A stretch of 45,413 nt of DNA from Candidatus Methylomirabilota bacterium (GCA_046726415.1 JBKPAK010000142.1:1-45413); one strand, 5' to 3'; numbered from the stretch's first letter, positions 56-14,451 are shown. Notes: a model not told the origin generated them from the sequence alone. Numbers and translations are program-made.

Positions 56-1009
56 CTATCCCCCGCCGCCCGCAGCCGCCGCGCGCCGCGCCGGACCCTC
101 TGCGACAGCGTGTCCAGCCGGTTCGGCGGCCGGTGATTCCAGCACCAGCGGGCGCCCGCCGAGTTGCCGCAGCTTGGGGTCGAGGTGGTCGCGCAACCAG
201 TCGCCCATGAGGTTGACCGCCAGCACGGTCAAGAGCATCGCCAGGCCGGGAAAGAGCGAGATCCACCAGGCGGTGGCGAGGAACCCGCGGCCGTCGGCGA
301 TCATCAGCCCCCAGGCCGGGCTGGGTGGCGGCACCCCCACGCCCAGGAAGCTCAGCGTCCCCTCCAGGAGAATCACGTAGCCCACCTGCAGGGTGGCGAT
401 TACCAGCAGGGTAGGTACCACGTTGGGGAAGATGTGGCGCCGGATGATCCAGGCTTTCGAGCGCCCGGCCACCACGGCCAGCGCCACGAAATCGAGCTCC
501 TTGATGGCCAGGGTTTCCCCCCGCATCTGCCGCGCGAAGCGCGGCCAGAGCAAGAGCGCGATGACCAGGACGACGTTGCGGAAGCTGGGCTCGGAGACCG
601 CGACCAGCACCACCGCGATCAGGATCGTCGGCAACGACAGTCCGATGTCGGTCAGCCGCATGAGCACGGTGTCGGTCAGGCCGCCGCGATACCCAGAGAC
701 CAGGCCGAGCACCGTACCCACGGTGCCCGCCACGAAGATGGCGATCAGGGATACGGCGAGGGAAATCTGACTGCCATAGATGATGCGGCTCAACACATCG
801 CGCCCGAAGCGATCCGTCCCCAGCGGATGGGCCCAGTCGCCTCGTTCCATCCAGACGGGCGGGATCAATCTCTGGGTGATGTCGCCCTCCGTCGGGCTGT
901 GTGGGGCAAGGACGGGCGCAAACGCCGCGGTCAGGACCAACGCGGAGAGGATCACGCCCGCGAACCAGGGGAGCTGTCGTCGACCCGCCACCGAGGGCGT
1001 ATCCGTCAT
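56..1009 (-). CDS. Peptide/nickel ABC transporter permease (DppC/OppC type)
   Basis: HPLGTDRFGRDVLSRIIYG motif, EAA-like loop, PPPSPAWG motif, multiple TM segments. Confidence 0.93.
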   Translation of the reverse strand: MTDTPSVAGRRQLPWFAGVILSALVLTAAFAPVLAPHSPTEGDITQRLIPPVWMERGDWAHPLGTDRFGRDVLSRIIYGSQISLAVSLIAIFVAGTVGTVLGLVSGYRGGLTDTVLMRLTDIGLSLPTILIAVVLVAVSEPSFRNVVLVIALLLWPRFARQMRGETLAIKELDFVALAVVAGRSKAWIIRRHIFPNVVPTLLVIATLQVGYVILLEGTLSFLGVGVPPPSPAWGLMIADGRGFLATAWWISLFPGLAMLLTVLAVNLMGDWLRDHLDPKLRQLGGRPLVLESPAAEPAGHAVAEGPARRAAAAGGGG

Positions 1010-1038
1010 GGTCTCGTCTCCTTGGCGGCGTTCGTCAA

Positions 1039-1968
1039 TCAGCCCGCAGCGGTGGAATGGCGGATTCTCGGGTTGAGGTAGCTATACAGCAGGTCTACGA
1101 AGAGATTCCCACCCAGATAGAGGGCACTCAGCACCAGCACCCCCGCCTGTACGATGGGGTAGTCGCGCGTGGTGATGGACTCCAGGATCAGCCGTCCCAG
1201 CCCCGGCCAGGCGAACACCGTCTCGGTGACCACGGCGCCGCCCAGGAATTGCACGAAGAGCATGACGGCGAAGGTGATGACCGGAAGCAGGGCGTTCTTC
1301 AGACCGTGCTTCCAGAGCACCACCTGCTCGTGCAGTCCCTTCAGCCGGGCGAACTTGATGTAGTCGGATCCGAGCACCTCCAGCATGGCCGAGCGGGTCA
1401 ATCTCAGGATGGCGGCGGAGGTGAAGTAACCCAAGGTGAAGGCCGGGAGGATGAGGTGCGGAAGGCCTCCTCGGCCGCCGGCGGGCAGCACTCCCAGCAC
1501 GACGGCGAAGAAGAGGATCAGCATGAGACCCAGCCAGAACGCGGGCATGGATTGTCCGAGCACGGCGAACACCCGCGCCCCGCTGTCCAGGGGCCTGCCT
1601 CGGCGCACGGCGGAGTACATGCCCAGGGGGACACCGATGAGGACGCTGAGAAACATGGCCACGAAGCCCAGCTCGACGGTGGCGGGCAGGCGTTCCCAGA
1701 TGTGCTCCGCAACCGGCCTCCGGGTGAGCACGGACTTCCCGAAATCACCCAGGAGGATGTTCTTCACATAAATCCCGTATTGGACGGGCAGCGGCTGGTC
1801 GAGACCCAGGTGGCGCATCAGGATCTCCTGATCGCGCTCGGTGGCATTCACGTCCAGCAGCAGATGGACGGGGTTGCCCGAGAGGCGGGTCAAGACGAAG
1901 ACGATGCTGATCACCACCAGCATGCTCAGCACCGTCTGCAGCAACCGTCCCGTCAGATATCGCCACAT
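1039..1968 (-). CDS. Peptide/nickel ABC transporter permease (DppB/OppB type)
   Basis: GDFGKS, RLPATVEL, DYIKFARLKGL, ETVFAWPGLG and RDYP motifs. Confidence 0.94.
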   Translation of the reverse strand: MWRYLTGRLLQTVLSMLVVISIVFVLTRLSGNPVHLLLDVNATERDQEILMRHLGLDQPLPVQYGIYVKNILLGDFGKSVLTRRPVAEHIWERLPATVELGFVAMFLSVLIGVPLGMYSAVRRGRPLDSGARVFAVLGQSMPAFWLGLMLILFFAVVLGVLPAGGRGGLPHLILPAFTLGYFTSAAILRLTRSAMLEVLGSDYIKFARLKGLHEQVVLWKHGLKNALLPVITFAVMLFVQFLGGAVVTETVFAWPGLGRLILESITTRDYPIVQAGVLVLSALYLGGNLFVDLLYSYLNPRIRHSTAAG

Positions 1969-1986
1969 ATCGTCACCTGCGGGTCG

Positions 1987-3591
1987 TCACTTGCTGGCCC
2001 GGGTCACGTATTCCCAGTTGTGGATCCCCATGTGACCCGGGATCAAGGGCCATTCCCCCACCTTCGGCCCCACGCCGGCAATCGAGTGCGTCGCCCCGAT
2101 GCTGACCGCCGGCATGTACTCATAGAGCCACGGCCCCATCTCCTCGCGCATGATCCGGGTTCGCTCGGCGGCGTTCGGTTCCGCCCCCAGGCGCTCGATG
2201 AACGCGTCGAGCTTGGGATGCTCCACCAGCAGATGCACCGCCGACTTCGTCTGGGCGATGCGCGCGAACAGCTCCCAGGGCTCCGGGGCGATGATCGGCC
2301 CGGCGTAGGCCAGCGTCACTCCCGCATACGACCGCGCCCGGAAATCCGCCGAGAACACCGCCCGGTCCACGGGCCGCCGTTTGACCTTGAGGCCCACTTT
2401 CTCCCAGTAGGTCGCCACCGCCTCGCCCACATCGGGCAGATATCCTCTGCCCGGCCAGGCGGTCAGGTTCATGGTGACCTCGAAGCCATTGGGATAGCCC
2501 GCCTCCGCGAGCAGCGCCTTCGCTTTCGGGGGGTCGTAGGGAACCGGTTTCAGCAGGGCGTCCGAGATCCAGGGGTCCGAGGGGTAGTAGTTCACCGTCC
2601 CGACGGGCGTTCCCACCCCGCCGAGCACCCGCTCGATGATCGCTTTCTTGTCCACGGCAAGGTTAAGGGCCAGGCGCACCTTCTTCGCACGCTCGGCGTC
2701 GGGCTGCGCCCAGGGCACCTTTGGGTCGTAGCTCGGTTTGGTCGGCCACTGCCCGCCGAGGATCACCCACACGGCGGCGACGTTGGGCATGACGAGCGTC
2801 CGCATTCCGACCTTCTTCAGCTCGTCCAAGTACTCGCCGCCGATCTCGATGACGTCGGCGCTGCCTGCGCGCAACATGGCCATGCGGGTGGCGGGCTCGG
2901 GCACCTTCACGAACACCAGCCGCTTGAAGTGAGGCACCGCTCGCCAGTGGTTGTCCATCGCCTCGTAGACGATGCGATCGCCGCGGACGTGCTCCACGAA
3001 TTTCCAGGGCCCGGTGCCGACGGGCTGACGCTCCGCCCCTTGCTCGCCGGCGGTCTCGATATGTTTCTTGGACTGGATATAGGCGACGGAGGCGAACAAT
3101 CCTTGCGTGACCCGGTTGCCCAAGGTCACGAACGGCTTGTCGAAGCGCAGGGTGATCGTGTACGGCCCCTCGACCTCCATGCTCTTGATCGTGCGGAACT
3201 CGGGCGCCATGGAATTGGCGGAGCCTTCCTTGGCGATTGAGGCGAAGGTGAATTTGACGTCCTCGGCCGTCACTTCCGACCCGTTGTGGAAGCGCACCCC
3301 TTTGCGGAGGTGGAATTTCCAGGTCCGTGCCCCGTCCGCGACCTCCCACCGCTCGGCCAGCATGGGGATCAGGTTGCCCTTGGCGTCGCGAGACAACAGG
3401 TTTTCCCATAGGGGCTTGAGCACGATGTCCTCGGCCCCGACGTAGAGACTGGGCAACCAGCGCTCGTTGCCGAAGGTGGCCACCGCCACCGTCAGCGTCC
3501 CCTCTGGCCGGGCAGCTGCCCAGGGCGCCGCGATGGCAACCCACAGGGAGGCCGCCACGATCAACGCGGTGATCCAGAACCGCTGCCTCAT
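1987..3591 (-). CDS. ABC transporter substrate-binding protein, family 5 (copy 1)
   Basis: Signal peptide MRQRFWITAL..; LRKGVRFHNG..TAEDVKFT; GTGPWKF; start chosen from AAGGAGGGAG SD. Confidence 0.92.
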   Translation of the reverse strand: MRQRFWITALIVAASLWVAIAAPWAAARPEGTLTVAVATFGNERWLPSLYVGAEDIVLKPLWENLLSRDAKGNLIPMLAERWEVADGARTWKFHLRKGVRFHNGSEVTAEDVKFTFASIAKEGSANSMAPEFRTIKSMEVEGPYTITLRFDKPFVTLGNRVTQGLFASVAYIQSKKHIETAGEQGAERQPVGTGPWKFVEHVRGDRIVYEAMDNHWRAVPHFKRLVFVKVPEPATRMAMLRAGSADVIEIGGEYLDELKKVGMRTLVMPNVAAVWVILGGQWPTKPSYDPKVPWAQPDAERAKKVRLALNLAVDKKAIIERVLGGVGTPVGTVNYYPSDPWISDALLKPVPYDPPKAKALLAEAGYPNGFEVTMNLTAWPGRGYLPDVGEAVATYWEKVGLKVKRRPVDRAVFSADFRARSYAGVTLAYAGPIIAPEPWELFARIAQTKSAVHLLVEHPKLDAFIERLGAEPNAAERTRIMREEMGPWLYEYMPAVSIGATHSIAGVGPKVGEWPLIPGHMGIHNWEYVTRASK

Positions 3592-3637
3592 AACTCCCTC
3601 CTTGCGGGCAGGCCCGAGCGGCGCATGCCGCCACAAT

Positions 3638-3685
3638 CCTTCCGGGGGGGACTCGGAAGGGGCCGTCGAAGCCCCTTCGACGGCC
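3638..3685. repeat. Intergenic double hairpin / REP-like palindrome between the two SBP genes
   Basis: CCTTCCG..CGGAAGG followed by GGCCGTCGAAG-CCC-CTTCGACGGCC. Confidence 0.7.
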
Positions 3686-5292
3686 TAGCGGGCGCGCGTC
3701 ACATACTCCCAGTTGTGAAACCCCATGTGGCCGGGGATCAGCGGCCATTCCCCCACCTTCGGCCCCACCCCGGCGATGGCATGGGCGGCCCCGATGGCGA
3801 CGCCGGGGACGTACTCGTAGAGCCAGGGTCCCAGTTCCTCGCGCATGATGCGCACGCGCTCCGCGTGGTTGGGCTGGATGGCGAGACGGTCGATCAACTC
3901 GTCCAGCCTGGGATGCTCCATGAAGAGATTCAGGGCAGCCTTGCTATGGCCCCCTCGGATCATGACCTCCCAGGGTTCGGGAGCGACCAGCGGAGCGGCA
4001 TACGCCAGCGTAACTCCCGCGTAGGCTCGCGCCCGGAAGTCCGCCGAGAACACCGCCCGGTCAACCGGCCGCCGCTTGACCTTGATGCCCACCTTCTCCC
4101 AGTACGTCGCTACCGCCTCGCCGACGTCCGGGAGATAGCCTCGCCCCGGCCACGCGGTGAGGTTCATGGTCACCTCGAAGCCGCTTGGATAGCCGCCGTC
4201 CGCCAGCAGCGCCTTTGCCTTGGCTGGGTCGTAGGGCAACGGTTTCTTCAAGGCTTCAGTGGCCCACGGGTCGTTGGGGTACGTCATCCAGGAGCCCACC
4301 ACGGTTCCCAGCCCGCCGAGCACCCGCTGCATGATGGCCTGCTTGTCCACCGCCAGGTTGAGCGCCAGGCGCACCTTGCGGGCTCGTTCCGCGTCGGGCT
4401 GCGCCCACGGCACCTTGGGATCATAGGTGGGCTTGGTGGGCCATTGCCCGCCCAGGATGACGTAGACCCACGACACGTTGGGCATGAGGAGCGTCCGTAC
4501 GCCGACCTTTTTCAGTTCCTCAACGTATTCGCCGCCGATCTCGATGACGTCGACGCTGCCCGCGCGGAGCATCGCCATGCGGGTGGCCGGCTCGGGCACC
4601 TTCAGCATCACCAGGCGCTTGAAGTTGGGCGTGGCCCGCCAGTGGTTCTCCACCGCCTCGTACACGATGCGATCGCCGCGGACGTGCTCCACGAACTTCC
4701 AGGGACCGGTGGCCACCGGATTCCGCTCCGCGCCTTGCTCGCCTGCGGTCTCGATGTGGTGCTTGGACTGGATAAAGGCCGACGACGCGAACAGCCCCTG
4801 GGTCACCTTGTTGCCGAACACCACCGATGGCTTGTCGAAGCGCACGGTGATGGTGTACCGGTCCTCGACTTCCATGCTCTTGATCTGCCGGAACTCCGGC
4901 GCCAGGGAATTGGCCGAGCCTTCCTTGGCGACGGAGGCGAAGGTGAACTTGACGTCTTCCGCCGTGACTTCACCGCGGCCGCCGTGGAAGTGGACACCCT
5001 TGCGCAAGTAGAACGTCCAGGTGCGGCCGCCGTCAGCGACCTTCCAGCGCTCCGCGAGCATGGGACTCAATTCGCCGGTCTTGGGGTCGCGAGACAGGAG
5101 ATTCTCGTACATGGGCTTGAGGACTACATCCTCGGCCCCGACGTAGAGATAGGGTAACCAGCGCTCGTTGCCGAACGTGGCGACGGCCACCGTCAGCGTC
5201 CCCTCCGGCTTGGCCGCTTCCCCCGAGGCACCGGCGAGAGCCCACAGAGCGGCCGTGGCGATCATCGTGGCGATCCAGAGCGGTCGACTCAT
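3685..5292 (-). CDS. ABC transporter substrate-binding protein, family 5 (copy 2, tandem paralog)
   Basis: Start MSRPLWIAT after AGGAGG SD; long stretches identical to the 1987-3591 protein. Confidence 0.92.
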   Translation of the reverse strand: MSRPLWIATMIATAALWALAGASGEAAKPEGTLTVAVATFGNERWLPYLYVGAEDVVLKPMYENLLSRDPKTGELSPMLAERWKVADGGRTWTFYLRKGVHFHGGRGEVTAEDVKFTFASVAKEGSANSLAPEFRQIKSMEVEDRYTITVRFDKPSVVFGNKVTQGLFASSAFIQSKHHIETAGEQGAERNPVATGPWKFVEHVRGDRIVYEAVENHWRATPNFKRLVMLKVPEPATRMAMLRAGSVDVIEIGGEYVEELKKVGVRTLLMPNVSWVYVILGGQWPTKPTYDPKVPWAQPDAERARKVRLALNLAVDKQAIMQRVLGGLGTVVGSWMTYPNDPWATEALKKPLPYDPAKAKALLADGGYPSGFEVTMNLTAWPGRGYLPDVGEAVATYWEKVGIKVKRRPVDRAVFSADFRARAYAGVTLAYAAPLVAPEPWEVMIRGGHSKAALNLFMEHPRLDELIDRLAIQPNHAERVRIMREELGPWLYEYVPGVAIGAAHAIAGVGPKVGEWPLIPGHMGFHNWEYVTRAR

Positions 5293-5483
5293 GGGTCTCC
5301 TCCTGGTGCGCGATATGCGCGATATGGTAGGGATCCTGCGCAAACGGGGGAGGAATTGCCCAACGATGACCAGGCCGTTTCGCGACCGCGCCCCGAGGTG
5401 GGAACGACGCGCAAGCCGGGGAGGAATCGGAGGGAGCGCGCCGTCCCTTCCAACGCAATCATCCGGAAGCCCTGTGTGCTCAT
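5289..5483 (-). CDS. Possible 64-aa upstream ORF coupled to the SBP start
   Basis: GAGGAG SD before ATG at 5483; its TGA overlaps the SBP ATG (ATGA); no recognisable homology. Confidence 0.25.
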   Translation of the reverse strand: MSTQGFRMIALEGTARSLRFLPGLRVVPTSGRGRETAWSSLGNSSPVCAGSLPYRAYRAPGGDP

Positions 5484-5740
5484 GAGGATCTCCTCTTCGA
5501 GAACCCTCGAAGCTTGGCCGGGGTGCCGATATCCTACTCCAAGAGTTCGCCGGCTTCCCGCGCTTTCCCGGGCGCTTAAGCTCTTGCTTGTCCAGCCCAC
5601 CACGGGCGGCTGGCACCTGCCCGAGACGGTGGCCTCGGCCCGCCGGCCTTCCGCGGCCGCGAGGTAGATGATGGCGCCGAGGGCCAGCGCCGGCCGTGCT
5701 AGCATCCCGAGGATTCTGACGACACGCACGGGAGGCAGGG

Positions 5741-6229: not shown

Positions 6230-7279
6230 TTAGTCCACTCGAAACACCAGGTCGGGGGTGAGGTCGGCGATCCTGGTGCGGCCGCAGAGGCCCATCGTGG
6301 TGCGAACTTCCTCTCGGAGGATCTCCATCGCCCGGGCTACACCATCAGCGCCATCGGCAGCGAGTCCCCACAGGGCCGTCCGACCCACGGCAACCACGGT
6401 CGCCCCGCGCGCCAGCGCCTTCACCACGTCGGTCCCACGCGAGAAGCCACCGTCCACCACGATCTCGGCGGCACCGGCGACAGCATCGACGATGAGCGGC
6501 AGAGCCTCAATGGCCGACTGGGTCTGGTCGAGCTGACGGCCTCCGTGGTTGGAGACCCAGATCAGGCGCACCCCCATCGCCACCGCGCGGCGGGCATCGG
6601 GCACCGTCATGATCCCCTTGAGCCCTACCGGCAGCTTCGTGGTCTTCACCAGCCACTCGACGTCGTCCCACGTGAGGCGCGCCTGGTACTCGGGGTTCGG
6701 CCCGCGCGGATTGGGAGCAATCTCCATGGCCTTGCGCGGGCTCCAGCGAGCCAGAATGTCGCGCTCGCGCCGGCTGTAGAGCTGGGTGTCGACGGTGAGC
6801 GCGACCGACTGATACCCGGAGGTCTCCACCCGCGCCAGCAGTTCACTCACCCAGCCGCGGTCGCCGTGATGGTAGAGCTGGAACATCTGAGCCGCCGTGC
6901 CGACCTTGGCGACGTCCTCCACTGGCCATCCGGTGGCGCCGCTCAGCCACTGGAGCGTCCCGCCCTTCCCCGCCCCGCGCGCCATTTCGACGTCGCCCTC
7001 CGGATGAAAGAGGACGAGACCGCCCATGGGCGCGACGGCGACCGGCCACTCGAGCGGCACGCCGAGAAAGGTCGTGCGGAGATCGATCTCGCGAACGTCG
7101 ACGAGCACGTTCTGGTAGATTGCCAGACGGTCGAGGTGGCGGCGGTTGCGACGGAGCGTGGTCTCCGTCTCCGTGCCGCCGGCCCCGAAGTTCCAGGCCT
7201 CGCGAGGCAGGCGCTTTCGGGCAGCGCGGCGAATCTCAGGCAGCGTGACGAAGCGTGGACCGGCAAATGGTTGGCTCAT
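6230..7279 (-). CDS. FMN-dependent alpha-hydroxy-acid oxidase/dehydrogenase
   Basis: APMG, QLY, LTVD, LKGI, SNHGGRQLD and VDGG..RGTD motifs. Confidence 0.93.
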   Translation of the reverse strand: MSQPFAGPRFVTLPEIRRAARKRLPREAWNFGAGGTETETTLRRNRRHLDRLAIYQNVLVDVREIDLRTTFLGVPLEWPVAVAPMGGLVLFHPEGDVEMARGAGKGGTLQWLSGATGWPVEDVAKVGTAAQMFQLYHHGDRGWVSELLARVETSGYQSVALTVDTQLYSRRERDILARWSPRKAMEIAPNPRGPNPEYQARLTWDDVEWLVKTTKLPVGLKGIMTVPDARRAVAMGVRLIWVSNHGGRQLDQTQSAIEALPLIVDAVAGAAEIVVDGGFSRGTDVVKALARGATVVAVGRTALWGLAADGADGVARAMEILREEVRTTMGLCGRTRIADLTPDLVFRVD

Positions 7280-7288
7280 AGCGCCGTA

Positions 7289-8938
7289 CTATAACCCTCC
7301 TTGTTCGTCGACAGAGACGGTGTTCTGGTACGTGCAGCCCATGATTCGCCAGTAGCCGTTGGTTTCGCCACCGACGACCACGATGTGGATATCCTCGCGC
7401 CGGAACATCGGAATCAGCTCGTCTGGGGCGGCACGGAGCTTCGACGCCCACGGCTCCTCGCCGAACGTGGCCCGCGGGTAGATGTAGTTCTGGACGAGCT
7501 GGTAGTCCCAGTACTCGCCGGCCGGCATGCGGGCGGTGTCGTAGAGCCAGTCCACCAGGGCCTCTTTCTTGGTGAAACCGCCCCGGTCGATGAACTGGCG
7601 CGCCGCGATGGGGTCGAGCAGCAGGGTCGGCGGCCCGTGAGGGTCCATGCCGCGCAGGAGATTGCGGACGTGCTCTCGCCAGTGTTTCTCCCGCAGTCCC
7701 AGCGTGAACGCGGTCGAACGGCAGCCGGTGAAAACACTCACCGTGCTGACGTCCGGCCTGAAGCCCCGCTGCACGTGGAAGGGCTCCCACGGGCTCCGCT
7801 CCTCGTTCTCCGCGAAGGTGAGGCTGTTGTACGCGTAGTTGTTGCCCTGGTTGCCCATGTAGCTGAGCCCGGGGACGGACCCGCCCTGGAGGTTCTGGGA
7901 CAGAAGGCCGTAGGCGCGGCCGATGGTGGCGTTGGCGTGGTTGTATGGCCCCATGGCGCCGGTGCCCGAATTCATGCCGATGGCGTGGCGGATCGGACCG
8001 TTCACCACGGCCATGGTGGCCACGGCACTGGAACTGCTACCGCGCGCCGTCACCCCGGTCGCGGCCAAGGCCAGAATCACGGGGAAGTACTCGGGCCGCG
8101 CCCCCGCCATCACCGCATTCACCGCCACCTTCTCGACGGTGTATTGCCAGTATTCGCGGAAGTGGGTCGAGCGCATCCGGCCGACGACCTCGTCGGGCTT
8201 GCGACGCGTCGCTGCCAGCATGGCCGCCACGCGCTCCTCCGTGGGGAGCACGATCGGCAACCCATCCGTCCAGTGATTGTCGAGGAACAGCCGCTCGAGA
8301 TTCTCCGCGGTGTCGGGCACGACGAGCCGCGGCGTCGAGCGGTCGAACTCGAGCGGGCCGAGGTCCGCCTCGGTGAGAGGCCGGGTGAGGCCCCCCACCA
8401 CTTCCTGCATCACCGGCCGCCCCGTGATGGGGTCCTGGCCGTCGACGTAGCTGCGCAGCTCGGCCGGCGTCTTGCCCATGATCGGCTGGGGGACGAACAC
8501 CTGCCGCAGCCCGGGCATCCCACTGACCTCCGCCACCGACCGGACCACGCGGTCGAACTTGTCGGTATGCATGGCCACGGTGGGGACGCCGTACTTCGCC
8601 TCGATTGTCATCGCGTGCGCGGCGACCGCCGGCGCGCAGGTGCTTCAGTGACCGACGCCGAGGATGGCGGCATGCCCCCTCGCCTTGATTTCCTCCCAGG
8701 TCGTCGGATCGTCGTTGAGGTAGACGCTCGAGATCGGCTTCACCACGGTCCGCACGCCTGCCATGTGCTCGGCGAACCACGCCTGCATCTGCCGCAGGAA
8801 GACATCCGAGTCGTCGAACCGGCAATCCACCAGATAGATCGTCTTGCCATCGAGCGCCGACAACCGCGGCGCGAGCGAATTCCGCGTGACCTTCGGCGCA
8901 AACCCCACCGGGTTCAGAACCGTGAGCGTGTCCCCCAT
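7289..8938 (-). CDS. UGSC-type selenoprotein (549 aa; Sec encoded by TGA at 8645-8647, UxxC motif)
   Basis: Continuous 1650-nt frame reading GVGH-TGA-STCAPAVAAHA-MTIE; hairpin just 3' of the TGA; C-terminal part has DGLPIVLPT, EKVAVNAVMAG and ANATIGRA motifs. Confidence 0.85.
8622..8638 (-). promoter_or_regulatory. Putative bacterial SECIS hairpin
   Basis: UGCG-(CGC bulge)-CGGC-[GGUC]-GCCG-CGCA; the stem starts 6 nt after the UGA, the G-led apical loop starts 18 nt after it, and the 3' arm extends to about 8616. Confidence 0.6.
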
Positions 8939-9216
8939 CGCCGAGCCTCCCCTGAAACGATCCGTTCCTTGGAGCTGCCATCGCGCCAGCGCATCGGACC
9001 CAGCTTCTCACGCCTCGCGGACGAGCCCCGGTACGATAGCACGCCGGTCCGCACGAGAGCGGCGACCCGGAGCGTTGCGCTCGCCTGCCGGCGCGACTTC
9101 CCTCTGCCGATGGTCGTTGGCCAATGATCCGCGCTAGACTCGCGGCGCGAAGCCGCCGCCGCGCCGCGCGTGCAGATGCGACGGACGCGAAGGCCGGATG
9201 AAAGGAGAGCACTCCC

Positions 9217-11322: not shown

Positions 11323-12318
11323 ATGCGAAGCATCGATGTCCATGCCCACGTGACGCCCCAGTGCTTCTGGCGAGCCACCGAGAACGGCGGCGACTGGCAC
11401 ACGATCCGACGCGAGCGGGATACGCGCGGTCAGGAGTGCGCTCTCGTCGGCAGCGGCCGGCAGCTCCTCCCGCCGCGCGCCCGCTGGACTCCGGAGGAGC
11501 GCTTGGCCGACATGGACTCGCTCGGGGTCGACGTTCACGTCGCCTCCCCCTACGTGGGGTTCTACAACTATCACCTTCCCCTCGAGGTCGCCCGAGCGAC
11601 GGCGCAGGCCACCAATGACGAGATCGCTGGCATGGTCAAGACTTGGCCGGCGCGCTTCGCGGGGCTCGGGACCCTGCCCATGCAGGACGTGAAGGCGGCC
11701 ATCGCCGAGTTGGAGCGTTGCATGACCCAGCTGGGCCTCAAGGGAGCGGAAATCAACGATCACGTCAACGGCCGCACCCTCGACGAGCCGGAGTTCCGTC
11801 CCTTCTGGAAGGCCGCCGAGCAGATGGGCGCCCTCGTGTTCTTCCACCAGGGCGGCGAGACCTTAGTCAGCCCGCGAACCAAGCGCTATCACCTCCCGAA
11901 CACCATTGGCAACCTCGTCGATCGCGCTGTCACCTTCGCCACCCTGGTATCGGGCGGCGTCATGGACGAGTACCCGAACCTCAAGATCGTGCTCGGTCAT
12001 GGCGGCGGATACACCTGTTACGGGATCGGACGCATGGACCACGGATGGCAGGTGCGCTCGGAGGCGCGTGTCAACATCTCGAAGCCGCCCAGCGCATATC
12101 TTCGTCACTTCTACTACGACTGCATCGTCTACACGGAGTCGGCGCTCCGCTTCCTCATCGATACGGTGGGCGCCGACCGCGTGGTGTTCGGCACCGACTG
12201 GCCGTACGACATGGCGCTCGACTGGCCCGTCTCCTGGATCCTCGGCATGAAATCGCTCGCCCAGGAGGAAAAGGACGCCATCCTCTGGAAGAACCTCGAG
12301 AAGCTCCTGGGTCTTTAG
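11323..12318 (+). CDS. Amidohydrolase_2 family protein (ACMSD-like decarboxylase/hydrolase)
   Basis: IDVHAH, GHGGG, FGTDWPYD; GAGGAG SD. Confidence 0.9.
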   Translation: MRSIDVHAHVTPQCFWRATENGGDWHTIRRERDTRGQECALVGSGRQLLPPRARWTPEERLADMDSLGVDVHVASPYVGFYNYHLPLEVARATAQATNDEIAGMVKTWPARFAGLGTLPMQDVKAAIAELERCMTQLGLKGAEINDHVNGRTLDEPEFRPFWKAAEQMGALVFFHQGGETLVSPRTKRYHLPNTIGNLVDRAVTFATLVSGGVMDEYPNLKIVLGHGGGYTCYGIGRMDHGWQVRSEARVNISKPPSAYLRHFYYDCIVYTESALRFLIDTVGADRVVFGTDWPYDMALDWPVSWILGMKSLAQEEKDAILWKNLEKLLGL

Positions 12319-12320
12319 AC

Positions 12321-12390
12321 ATGGGGGGCCCCGAACTGGCCCTCCATACCCCCCAGCGCTCGGCGCGCCCCGGCGGCCGCCCCCTCGATC
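12321..12390 (+). repeat. ~70-bp REP-like palindromic element, copy B
   Basis: ATGGGGGGCCCCGAACTGGCCC..CTCGATC matches the reverse complement of 6152-6225. Confidence 0.75.
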
Positions 12391-12403
12391 AGGTGCGGAC
12401 GCC

Positions 12404-13453
12404 TCAGTCGTCCAGCAGGAGCGCGGCGCGGCCGACCAGCGCGTTCTTTCGCAGCAGCTCGTGAGCCTCTTCGGCGCCATCGAGAGGGAACGTCCTGCTC
12501 ACGATGGCCCTGATGCGCCTCTGCCGAAGCAGCTCGAGCGTCTGCTGGATCTCGGCCAGGGTAACGTAGCGGGAGCCATGGATCTCCAGCATGTCGGCGA
12601 GCATCCGGCCCGGATCCACCGTGAATTTTGCCTCCACGCCAAACGCCTCGCGCGGCCGGCTGCCGATGATGACGAGTCGCCCGGCCCGGGCGAGCGATGC
12701 CACCGAGCCCTCCAGCGTTTCTCGCGACGCCACGAAGTCGATCGCCGCATCCACGCCTCGACCGTCGGTCAGCGCGCGCACCTGGTCGGCGAGACCGCCG
12801 CGTCGGACGTCGATGAGGGCATCGGCCCCGCAGTCTTTCGCCGCCGCCAGCTTTTCGTCGCCGACGTCGGCCGCCACTACCCAGCCGCCGCTGAGCTTGG
12901 CCATCTGCACGCCGTGAATGCCCACCCCACCCCCGGCGCCGACGATCAGGACCGTATCTCCGGGGCCCACCCGCGCCTCCTCGCGGCAGGCGTGGTAGGG
13001 CGTACAGACCGCATCGGCAGCGATCGCCGCCTCGAGGTCGCTCACTTCGGTCGGGATCGGCGCGACATTGGCGGCCGGGATGGCCATGTACTGAGCGTAC
13101 GCGCCGTCGCAGGCCATCCCCACGTAGCCGCGGAACGCCGTGCAGAGCGTTTCCCGCCCGCTCCGGCAGAACCGGCATGTTCTGCAGGTGAGGTAGAAGT
13201 GGCATGTCACGCGGTCGCCGACCTTCACGTGAGTGACCTCGGACCCCACTTCGGCGATCTCGCCAGCGACCTCGTGTCCGGGGATGCGGGGGAAAGACGT
13301 CACCCGGCCCGGGACGGCGGTCATGATGACCACGGTGAGCCCGACGCCGGCGGCTCGCACGCGGAGCAGCACGTCGGTGGGGCCGATCTTCGGGACGGGC
13401 ACAGTCTCGAGCCGAAGCGGGGCGCGCAATTCGGGGAGGACCATCGCCTTCAT
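12404..13453 (-). CDS. Zinc-binding alcohol dehydrogenase (MDR family)
   Basis: PGHE, CxxCxxCx7C structural Zn site, GAGGGVG; start MKAMVL after AAGGA SD. Confidence 0.92.
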   Translation of the reverse strand: MKAMVLPELRAPLRLETVPVPKIGPTDVLLRVRAAGVGLTVVIMTAVPGRVTSFPRIPGHEVAGEIAEVGSEVTHVKVGDRVTCHFYLTCRTCRFCRSGRETLCTAFRGYVGMACDGAYAQYMAIPAANVAPIPTEVSDLEAAIAADAVCTPYHACREEARVGPGDTVLIVGAGGGVGIHGVQMAKLSGGWVVAADVGDEKLAAAKDCGADALIDVRRGGLADQVRALTDGRGVDAAIDFVASRETLEGSVASLARAGRLVIIGSRPREAFGVEAKFTVDPGRMLADMLEIHGSRYVTLAEIQQTLELLRQRRIRAIVSRTFPLDGAEEAHELLRKNALVGRAALLLDD

Positions 13454-13647
13454 CGTGTCCTTCCGCGCTCTCATCGATCTCCATCCGTCGGCAGCGTTTG
13501 CGGGCGCCTACCCTACCACGAGCAGCTCGCGACCGTCGGCATCTCTGCCCTCCGCCATCGATCGGGGATCGCGGATCACTGGATTCAGCAAGCCGGCCGT
13601 CCAACGTGTCGCGGAGCACGCGGGCCCGGCACTGACGAGGGGGAGCG

Positions 13648-14451
13648 ATGATCTTCCAGCAATATCGCGGTCATCTTCTGGTCGTCAGGCAGCCGGACCA
13701 CGGCGTGCAGACGGGCTTCTTCGCCAGGCACTGGGGCAACGAGGACACGCCGGCCTTCAGCCCCCGTGAGCCGGTGATCGCGGCTGGCACCCGCCACGAC
13801 GATGGCTGGAAAGAGTGGGAGGCGTGCCCCTCGCTGGATCCGTCCACGGGCCAGCCCTGGCAGTTCTACCGGCTGACACCGCATGAGCACGTCCCCCTGT
13901 ACCGACGCGGTATCGAGATGGCGGCCCAGCATGACCCAACCACCGGGGTCCTGGTGAGCATGCACGGGGCCGGGCTCTACAACGACCGCTATGGAACATT
14001 CCGTCTCGCCGAACAGAAGTTCACCGCCTCCGAACGGGAGTTGGTGGATGAATTCCTGGCCGAGCAGGCTCTTTTTCAGCAATCGCTCGCGGAGCGCGTC
14101 CGGGGCCGCATCCTGCACACTCACGTCACCACCGATCCGCAGGTCTGGTACAACTACTTGCTGCTTCAGACCTGGGATCGGCTGTCGCTGCAGTACGTCT
14201 TCCGTCTGGCGGCCGACGGCGAGATCGCACCCCTCCCTCGCCCTGACGGCTCTACCTCGGCCCTTCGATGCAAAAACCGCGGCGACCTGACCCTCAGTCT
14301 CGAACCCTACCCCTTCGACGAGTCCCCGCGCACGCTCCCCGTCGAGGCTCGCCTGTTGCGAGACCAGCCCTATCGGGACGCAGAGGAGTTCCTGGCCGAG
14401 ATGGCGAAGGTCACGGTGACAATCCTAGAGTGTCGTGCGAGTCGCGACTGA
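13648..14451 (+). CDS. DUF3891-family protein
   Basis: QPDH..FARHWGN, HDDGW..WE, LVSMH and DRLSL motifs. Confidence 0.8.
   Translation: MIFQQYRGHLLVVRQPDHGVQTGFFARHWGNEDTPAFSPREPVIAAGTRHDDGWKEWEACPSLDPSTGQPWQFYRLTPHEHVPLYRRGIEMAAQHDPTTGVLVSMHGAGLYNDRYGTFRLAEQKFTASERELVDEFLAEQALFQQSLAERVRGRILHTHVTTDPQVWYNYLLLQTWDRLSLQYVFRLAADGEIAPLPRPDGSTSALRCKNRGDLTLSLEPYPFDESPRTLPVEARLLRDQPYRDAEEFLAEMAKVTVTILECRASRD

Follow-up and report, generated by a model that had tools for sequence, protein, structure and literature searches.

Does an in-frame TGA separate two genes, or does it encode a selenocysteine (Sec) within a single one? The question is raised by a stretch of 45,413 nucleotides, hereafter the window, from a Candidatus Methylomirabilota bacterium (GCA_046726415.1, JBKPAK010000142.1:1-45413), in which two open reading frames (ORFs) of 97 and 440 amino acids (8645-8938 and 7289-8611, minus strand) lie on either side of such a codon. 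The original prediction, made from the sequence alone, had read the two as one hidden selenoprotein of 549 residues, in which a small redox domain with a U-S-T-C motif is fused to a large domain and a hairpin resembling a bacterial selenocysteine insertion sequence (SECIS) follows the UGA; standard annotation was expected to split it in two. Our analysis indicates that the UGA almost certainly codes for selenocysteine and that the two ORFs form one gene, a conclusion that rests on sequence comparison, and places the protein in the described UGSC family as a fusion with a large domain without a family name, which we call X.

One reading frame across a conserved TGA

Translation of positions 7289-8938 on the minus strand yields one frame of 549 residues with a terminal TAG stop, of which the 97- and 440-residue ORFs are the two halves and in which the TGA at codon 98 (8645-8647) is the sole departure from translation table 11. 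The junction reads GVGH-U-STCAPAVAAHAM, spelled out G-V-G-H-U-S-T-C-A-P-A-V-A-A-H-A-M, and both the shared frame and its coordinates are as the original prediction gave them. A protein homologue search, in which 7926 of 8000 scored candidates reached E<=0.001, shows that databases hold this gene in two forms: among the matches listed, homologues of 546-558 residues are 69-75% identical to the query over 98-99% of its length, and others of 434-443 residues are 84-93% identical over 79-80%, the shorter size fitting gene calls that start after the TGA. The column of the putative selenocysteine is occupied by Cys in all 28 aligned full-length homologues, among which the segment G94-V-G-H-C-S-T-C-A-P103 is invariant; together with the 22 relatives with a TGC codon described below, this is the pattern that the prediction had asked of the homologues. 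Public calls are mostly of the shorter kind (434-443 residues among the matches listed), making this another case in which automatic gene calling cuts a selenoprotein at its UGA. The word hidden, by contrast, holds for such automatic calls and not otherwise, as NCBI already names both a 553-residue orthologue and a 438-residue piece 'UGSC family (seleno)protein'.

The TGA itself is a stable property of the gene in its own lineage. In a survey of 121 genomes of the same phylum, the source genome included, the gene was matched at E<=1e-100 in 41, all within the taxonomic family of the source: 40 of the 72 genomes from that family have it, as against 0 of 48 from eight further families. Exactly one TGA is found in each of the 40 match rows that span residue 98, the two remaining rows of the 42 beginning at residues 243 and 345, and in all 30 loci that were fetched from these genomes it sits at the motif. 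Of 585 stretches from named genome records, 566 code for a relative; the 80 best among them divide into 55 with TGA, 22 with TGC and 3 partial loci without the motif region. The related-genome and named-record collections overlap, and their 85 TGA loci represent 68 distinct genes, at 74-91% protein identity. TGC is one base away from TGA and is carried by 22 relatives, which is what a sequencing or assembly error at codon 98 would have in its favour; the same TGA is nevertheless present in 30 of 30 related-genome loci and in 55 named-record loci, and contigs from three soil metagenome runs that span the site have a variant at 8651 with no other letter listed at 8645-8647. Because the TGA recurs in 68 distinct genes, it is not a sequencing error, and the chance we would still grant one is vanishingly small.

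The two codon states also follow taxonomy to a large extent. TGA forms come mostly from metagenome-assembled genomes (MAGs) of Rokubacteria/Methylomirabilota, with a more distant TGA group in Chloroflexota and one MAG labelled Gammaproteobacteria, and TGC forms mainly from Alphaproteobacteria, with single records labelled Thiobacillus, Vulcanimicrobiota, Lustribacter and Chloroflexia. On a quick tree that samples 16 Sec forms, from 68 distinct ones, and 20 Cys forms, all but two of the 22 (those two were left off for captured frames of less than 500 residues), two changes suffice to explain the Sec/Cys label, and the main Cys clade, with 19 members, groups as sister to the Sec clade of Chloroflexota; the outgroup is one long-branched paralogue and the root accordingly insecure.

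Three side observations concern these collections. Seven MAGs labelled Gemmatimonadaceae, Deferrimicrobiaceae, Limnocylindria, Binatia, Nitrosocosmicus (an archaeon), Dormiibacterota and Verrucomicrobiia (L075, L077, L094, L123, L129, L132 and L136) hold Sec-form genes 81-85% identical to those of Rokubacteria, and these contigs are probably mis-binned. In the Lustribacter record (L087:5947-7626) the orthologue consists of two abutting ORFs of 205 and 353 residues, which may reflect a frame break or a natural separation of UGSC and X. Finally, summed contig depth in the three soil metagenome runs peaks in the bin 8609-8663 (209, 440 and 74, against mostly less than 100 elsewhere), which fits an ultra-conserved stretch around the UGA and hairpin that is common to many strains.

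A SECIS-like hairpin and the selenocysteine machinery

Downstream of the UGA, at 8638-8616 when read along the minus strand, the transcript can form a hairpin with UGCG/CGCA and CGGC/GCCG stems and a GGUC loop that begins 17 nucleotides after the UGA, just as the original prediction had it. Bacterial SECIS elements lie shortly after the UGA and have a G early in the apical loop, with a spacing that is reportedly 16-37 nucleotides in the description of bSECISearch; a close downstream hairpin with a G-led loop at the near end of that range is what is found here. Its conservation follows the codon: the apical stem of four pairs can form in 85 of 85 TGA loci versus 1 of 22 TGC loci, the apical loop across the TGA loci is GGUC 84 times and GGUU once, and the mean minimum free energy of the region is -16.2 kcal/mol in TGA loci versus -8.2 kcal/mol in TGC loci. 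In an alignment of 26 distinct TGA sequences all 208 cells of the hairpin (100%) are paired, with substitutions limited to C-G to U-G and G-C to G-U, and we retained this version over a longer one of 12 pairs, of which 86% of cells are paired. The constraint extends to synonymous codon choice, where the entropy of columns with an invariant residue averages 0.74 bits over 30 orthologues and falls to 0.08 bits at residues 97-108, the lowest 12-codon window of the gene. For codons +1 to +11, the 84 TGA sequences show 0.18 bits where the gene as a whole averages 0.82, which puts this stretch at the bottom of 44 windows; in the 20 TGC sequences the corresponding values are 0.85 and 0.96, and the stretch is not one of the lowest among 215 windows.

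Three general measures count against the hairpin. The minimum free energy of the 81 nucleotides after the UGA is no better than that of shuffled sequences (z -0.13), fold energy alone being uninformative because the DNA is G+C-rich; covariation is not significant in either version of the hairpin, with 250-500 of 500 shuffles reaching the observed values, because the stretch is nearly invariant; and an Rfam search over 8450-8750 at E<=10 returned three chance-level matches and no SECIS family. Judged by comparison among sequences, the signal for the predicted element is nonetheless far beyond chance.

The source genome, which is 98% complete, further contains the machinery for Sec insertion. 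All four sel genes named in the prediction, selA, selB, selC and selD, were recovered above their cut-offs (selD 335.6, selA 591.9, selB 374.2 and tRNA-Sec 71 bits), with selA, selB and tRNA-Sec together on one contig, and ARAGORN reports a tRNA-SeC with anticodon TCA. The selD match (C223:11994-12938) holds one in-frame TGA of its own, and the selenophosphate synthetase of this genome is probably a selenoprotein itself. On the comparative evidence, the ribosome would read UGA codon 98 as selenocysteine with the help of tRNA-Sec and SelB, both recruited by the hairpin, which starts 6 nucleotides after the UGA and presents its loop 17 nucleotides after it.

These results bear directly on the alternative that the TGA is a true stop, either between two genes of 97 and 440 residues or as a nonsense mutation in a broken one. 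Gene callers do split the locus, and the public calls mostly begin after the codon, yet 68 distinct genes, at 74-91% protein identity, retain the TGA, the codons between it and the next ATG specify the same amino acids as in the Cys forms, a 97-residue product would stop one residue short of the only conserved redox motif, and both a conserved hairpin and the complete Sec machinery are present. We therefore consider the combined evidence to exclude a sequencing error and to make a simple stop very unlikely, its remaining probability being marginal. One UGSC-X selenoprotein gene, decoded through selenocysteine and read as a reductase, is in our view a highly probable explanation of the whole.

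The UGSC domain and its partner, domain X

Residues 6-165 match the Pfam UGSC family (PF24696) at 88.5 bits (cut-off 25; profile positions 1-159 of 172), and the remaining large domain has no named family, in line with the predicted fusion of a small redox domain to a large one. The NCBIfam equivalog model NF041046 scores 63.7 bits, below its cut-off of 125; the protein belongs to a divergent branch and is not an equivalog of the stand-alone UGSC protein of about 150 residues. Within this branch U-G-S-C is replaced by U-S-T-C, which is invariant in 29 of 29 aligned members and retains the UxxC spacing. A six-frame search of the source genome found seven copies of the UGSC domain with one TGA each, and the copy in the window (84.5 bits in this search) is the weakest of six near-full-length matches, the others scoring 153-189 bits; the seventh, partial, on C186 has 59.3 bits. 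In a predicted model of medium confidence (predicted local distance difference test, pLDDT, 73.8), the Sec follows a strand and sits at the start of the helix that comes next, and for residues 27-192 the top 50 VIA matches are flavodoxin/CheY/Rossmann/B12-binding-like (Z 7.7-9.8), none named thioredoxin. The N-terminal domain has 0 matches among PDB sequences, and a Foldseek comparison of the full-length model with the PDB gave none at E<=0.001.

Both the family and a fusion of UGSC with a domain that has no name have been published before. Zhang and Gladyshev reported the UGSC-containing protein in 2007 as a selenoprotein of unknown function (PMC1976440), and their 2008 study of the Global Ocean Sampling selenoproteome counts it among the major families, with 255 Sec and 21 Cys sequences and a UxxC motif; of the selenoprotein families predicted from aquatic metagenomes it is among the most abundant (PMC2398784). 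The same study suggests a thioredoxin-like fold for the UxxC domain, mentions a 'UGSC/Unknown_1 fusion' and states that conserved Cys residues as a rule mark the domains fused to UGSC (PMC2398784). A 2022 review lists UGSC among prokaryotic selenoproteins (PMC9312934), and one of 2026 places it among those whose biological functions are largely uncharacterised (PMC13188914). Among the publications found on Rokubacteria with selenocysteine, none is about this protein, going by titles and the beginnings of abstracts. The originally predicted UGSC-family selenoprotein thus stands, with the correction that both the family and a UGSC fusion had been described before (PMC2398784). The protein in the window resembles the family (PF24696, NF041046) in its Pfam match, UxxC centre, alternation of Sec and Cys and SECIS-like hairpin after the UGA, and differs in its U-S-T-C motif, its sub-cut-off NF041046 score and a medium-confidence model that looks flavodoxin/CheY-like, where a thioredoxin-like fold was suggested in 2008 (PMC2398784). 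The UGSC/Unknown_1 fusion likewise joins UGSC to an unnamed domain, and Unknown_1 is likely our domain X; the two differ in that conserved Cys residues are the rule in such fusions, whereas the X branch of the window is without the two conserved ones (PMC2398784). What the present gene adds is a well-supported example from a soil phylum and a divergent branch whose partner domain has lost its conserved cysteines, and no new family.

For domain X (residues ~195-549) neither Pfam nor NCBIfam has a matching family. Seven copies from the source genome, the window's X and six paralogues, were combined into a profile, which recovers 7834 cluster representatives at E<=0.001, of which 2517 reach E<=1e-30, and has 0 matches among PDB sequences at E<=10. 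A confident X-only model (76 sequences; pLDDT 85.9, predicted template modelling score 0.89) has only unnamed clusters as its Atlas structural neighbours. X is a very large unannotated family without a clear solved relative. Its association with UGSC recurs within the source genome, where five other UGSC copies adjoin or are fused to an X copy (C54, C120, C80, C200 and C8): a second UGSC-X fusion with the motif GDUGSC on C54, three gene pairs in which X precedes UGSC (C120, C80 and C20/C200), opposite to how the domains are arranged in the window's fusion, and on C8 a UGSC copy immediately upstream of an X copy. No UGSC match accompanies the X copies of C224 and C38. These UGSC and X paralogues share both domains with the window's protein, and every UGSC copy has a Sec codon, but they keep GDUGSC or ADUGSC and both X cysteines and are 33-39% identical to the window's X.

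Beyond this genome, a Pfam scan of 34 X representatives of unusual length, chosen from 150 among the matches listed, revealed a set of partners. A whole N-terminal UGSC domain is present in 7 of the 34, and two more begin inside UGSC and so are truncated past the Sec codon; in four a C-terminal UGSC stops at profile position 92, the site of the Sec codon. Five carry an AhpC-TSA/Redoxin N-terminus above the cut-off (one more lies below it), two a domain of the ferredoxin:thioredoxin reductase (FTR) catalytic chain (FeThRed_B) and one a C-terminal thioredoxin-reductase-like Pyr_redox_2; the 12 without any extra family include proteins of about 710 residues with two X-profile stretches. Since X is partnered with UGSC, peroxiredoxin-, FTR-beta- and thioredoxin-reductase-like modules, the pattern is that expected if X handles the substrate in a reductase fed by a selenol or thiol centre. 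In keeping with this, a thioredoxin-reductase-like gene of ~305 residues lies within 6 kb of 10 of the 22 Cys-form orthologues of the window's branch (L073, L078, L081, L086, L096, L099, L116, L118, L133 and L142). One of these loci, L133, has two thioredoxin-reductase-like genes and a helix-turn-helix-glutaredoxin gene downstream. As some of the Cys forms with an adjacent gene of this kind stem from strain-named records that bear no MAG label (Methylocella sp., Terripilifer ovatus), they offer a practical experimental route.

Possible chemistry and genomic setting

In light of these partners, we propose that the U-x-x-C pair cycles between a selenol/thiol and a selenenyl-sulfide state, would pass two electrons to a substrate bound by X, and could be re-reduced by a thioredoxin-reductase-like flavoprotein or by the cell's thioredoxin system. 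We give this inferred Sec-dependent reductase mechanism, comprising cycling, electron delivery and re-reduction, about an even chance of being correct.

Several points weigh against it. The first concerns X itself: compared with 75 other X sequences, the window's domain has Ala at position 280, which is Cys in 74, and Thr at 374, which is Cys in 70, and it further departs from the common residue at positions 334 (His for Arg, the latter in 67 of 75), 344 (Gly for Arg, 64 of 75) and 445 (Ala for His, 64 of 75). Within the branch A280 is invariant and T374 nearly so; D225, N274, N336, G340-R341, E377 and W384 are retained. The absence of both family-typical cysteines weakens the reductase mechanism for this copy, as with their loss a relay from the U-x-x-C pair to an X cysteine pair cannot operate here. 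The second is that a thioredoxin-reductase-like gene is near 0 of the 55 Sec-form loci and that the nearest such homologues in the source genome are on other contigs, at 33-40% identity. The third is structural, the one likeness detected for X being to class I fumarate hydratase, an enzyme that does not reduce disulfides; it is weak (Foldseek E 1.8e-4, TM-score 0.26, root-mean-square deviation 16.8 A; VIA Z 4.0) and was rejected, a wide VIA search with the X model giving a best Z of 4.0 and none at Z>=5. Lastly, the neighbourhood of the gene is not conserved and therefore provides no clue to the substrate.

Some of the same observations can be turned into a different explanation, in which the selenoprotein is real but its UGSC centre serves as a redox switch, or as a site binding selenium or a metal, through which X is regulated or matured, with X itself non-redox, for example hydro-lyase-like. 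That the only structural hints for X are to Fe-S hydro-lyases would fit, as would the loss of both conserved cysteines from this X branch and a sub-threshold NifU-like tail (16.7 bits) in one X representative. The weakness of the hydro-lyase matches, the repeated fusion of X to electron-delivering modules and the thioredoxin-reductase-like gene next to nearly half of the Cys-form orthologues all stand against such a role, and we consider it improbable.

If the reductase mechanism does apply, it would have to take a particular form in the window's branch. As X has lost two cysteines that 70-74 of 75 other members keep, the Sec centre would act on the substrate directly and not through an X cysteine pair; more precisely, either Sec98 and Cys101 may act directly, or the nearly invariant Cys406 may participate. 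An analogy is offered by selenoprotein B of the glycine and proline reductases (GrdB/PrdB), a UxxC selenoprotein that works with a substrate-binding partner and is recycled by the thioredoxin system. The likeness is by analogy only: PF07355, the GrdB/PrdB family, has no match at E<=1 in the Pfam scan, which reported PF24696 alone and in which HMMER filters may drop matches above an E of about 0.1, and the host is a soil Rokubacterium rather than an amino-acid-fermenting anaerobe. On this analogy, UGSC and X might together constitute an undescribed class of selenol- or thiol-driven reductases, widespread in aerobic bacteria of soil and water and functionally similar to protein B, with the USTC branch as a variant in which Sec98 attacks the substrate directly. 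We put this extended proposal forward tentatively and think it rather unlikely to hold in full; if true, direct attack by Sec98 would explain why this lineage retains Sec with no thioredoxin-reductase gene set aside for it nearby, whereas the orthologues that exchanged Sec for Cys have held on to such a neighbour.

The features of the locus are collected in Table 1. The arrangement downstream of the gene, an FMN-dependent dehydrogenase followed by components of an ABC transporter, was considered as an indication of function and rejected, as it is not conserved: an FMN_dh neighbour occurs at just 2 of the 84 Sec-form loci and at none of the 22 with Cys, and binding protein or permease neighbours at 4-8 of the 84, in a count in which 29 of the 84 Sec loci had flanks of only 1.5 kb. 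Contexts are likewise variable in a Pfam analysis of 68 neighbouring ORFs, chosen from 118 listed in 12 diverse loci.

Table 1. Coordinates of the UGSC-X gene, its elements and its downstream neighbours in the window
Feature	Position	Strand	Basis
Whole gene, two-domain UGSC-X selenoprotein (predicted)	7289..8938	-	single-TGA frame; 546-558 aa Cys homologues align end to end
Shine-Dalgarno-like GGGGAGG, 7 nt upstream of ATG at 8936-8938	8946..8952	-	read from sequence
In-frame UGA, codon 98, first residue of U-S-T-C, probably read as selenocysteine	8645..8647	-	comparative evidence
SECIS-like hairpin, UGCG / 3-nt bulge / CGGC - GGUC loop - GCCG / CGCA; extendable to 8612-8640	8616..8638	-	
UGSC-family redox domain, residues 6-165	8444..8923	-	PF24696 match
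Domain X, residues ~195-549, constant partner of UGSC	7292..8356	-	profile search, predicted model
FMN-dependent alpha-hydroxy-acid dehydrogenase family gene, 9 nt past the stop	6230..7279	-	PF01070, 371.5 bits
Two SBP_bac_5 binding proteins and two ABC permeases, further downstream	56..5616	-	Pfam

As to expression, one metatranscriptome run provided three short contigs at 90-95% likeness, none of them over the UGA, and is uninformative. Elsewhere in the window, the interval 12315-13651 holds long ORFs without a Pfam family on both strands (434 residues on the minus and 396 on the plus strand), after which a DUF3891 gene follows at 13648-14451.

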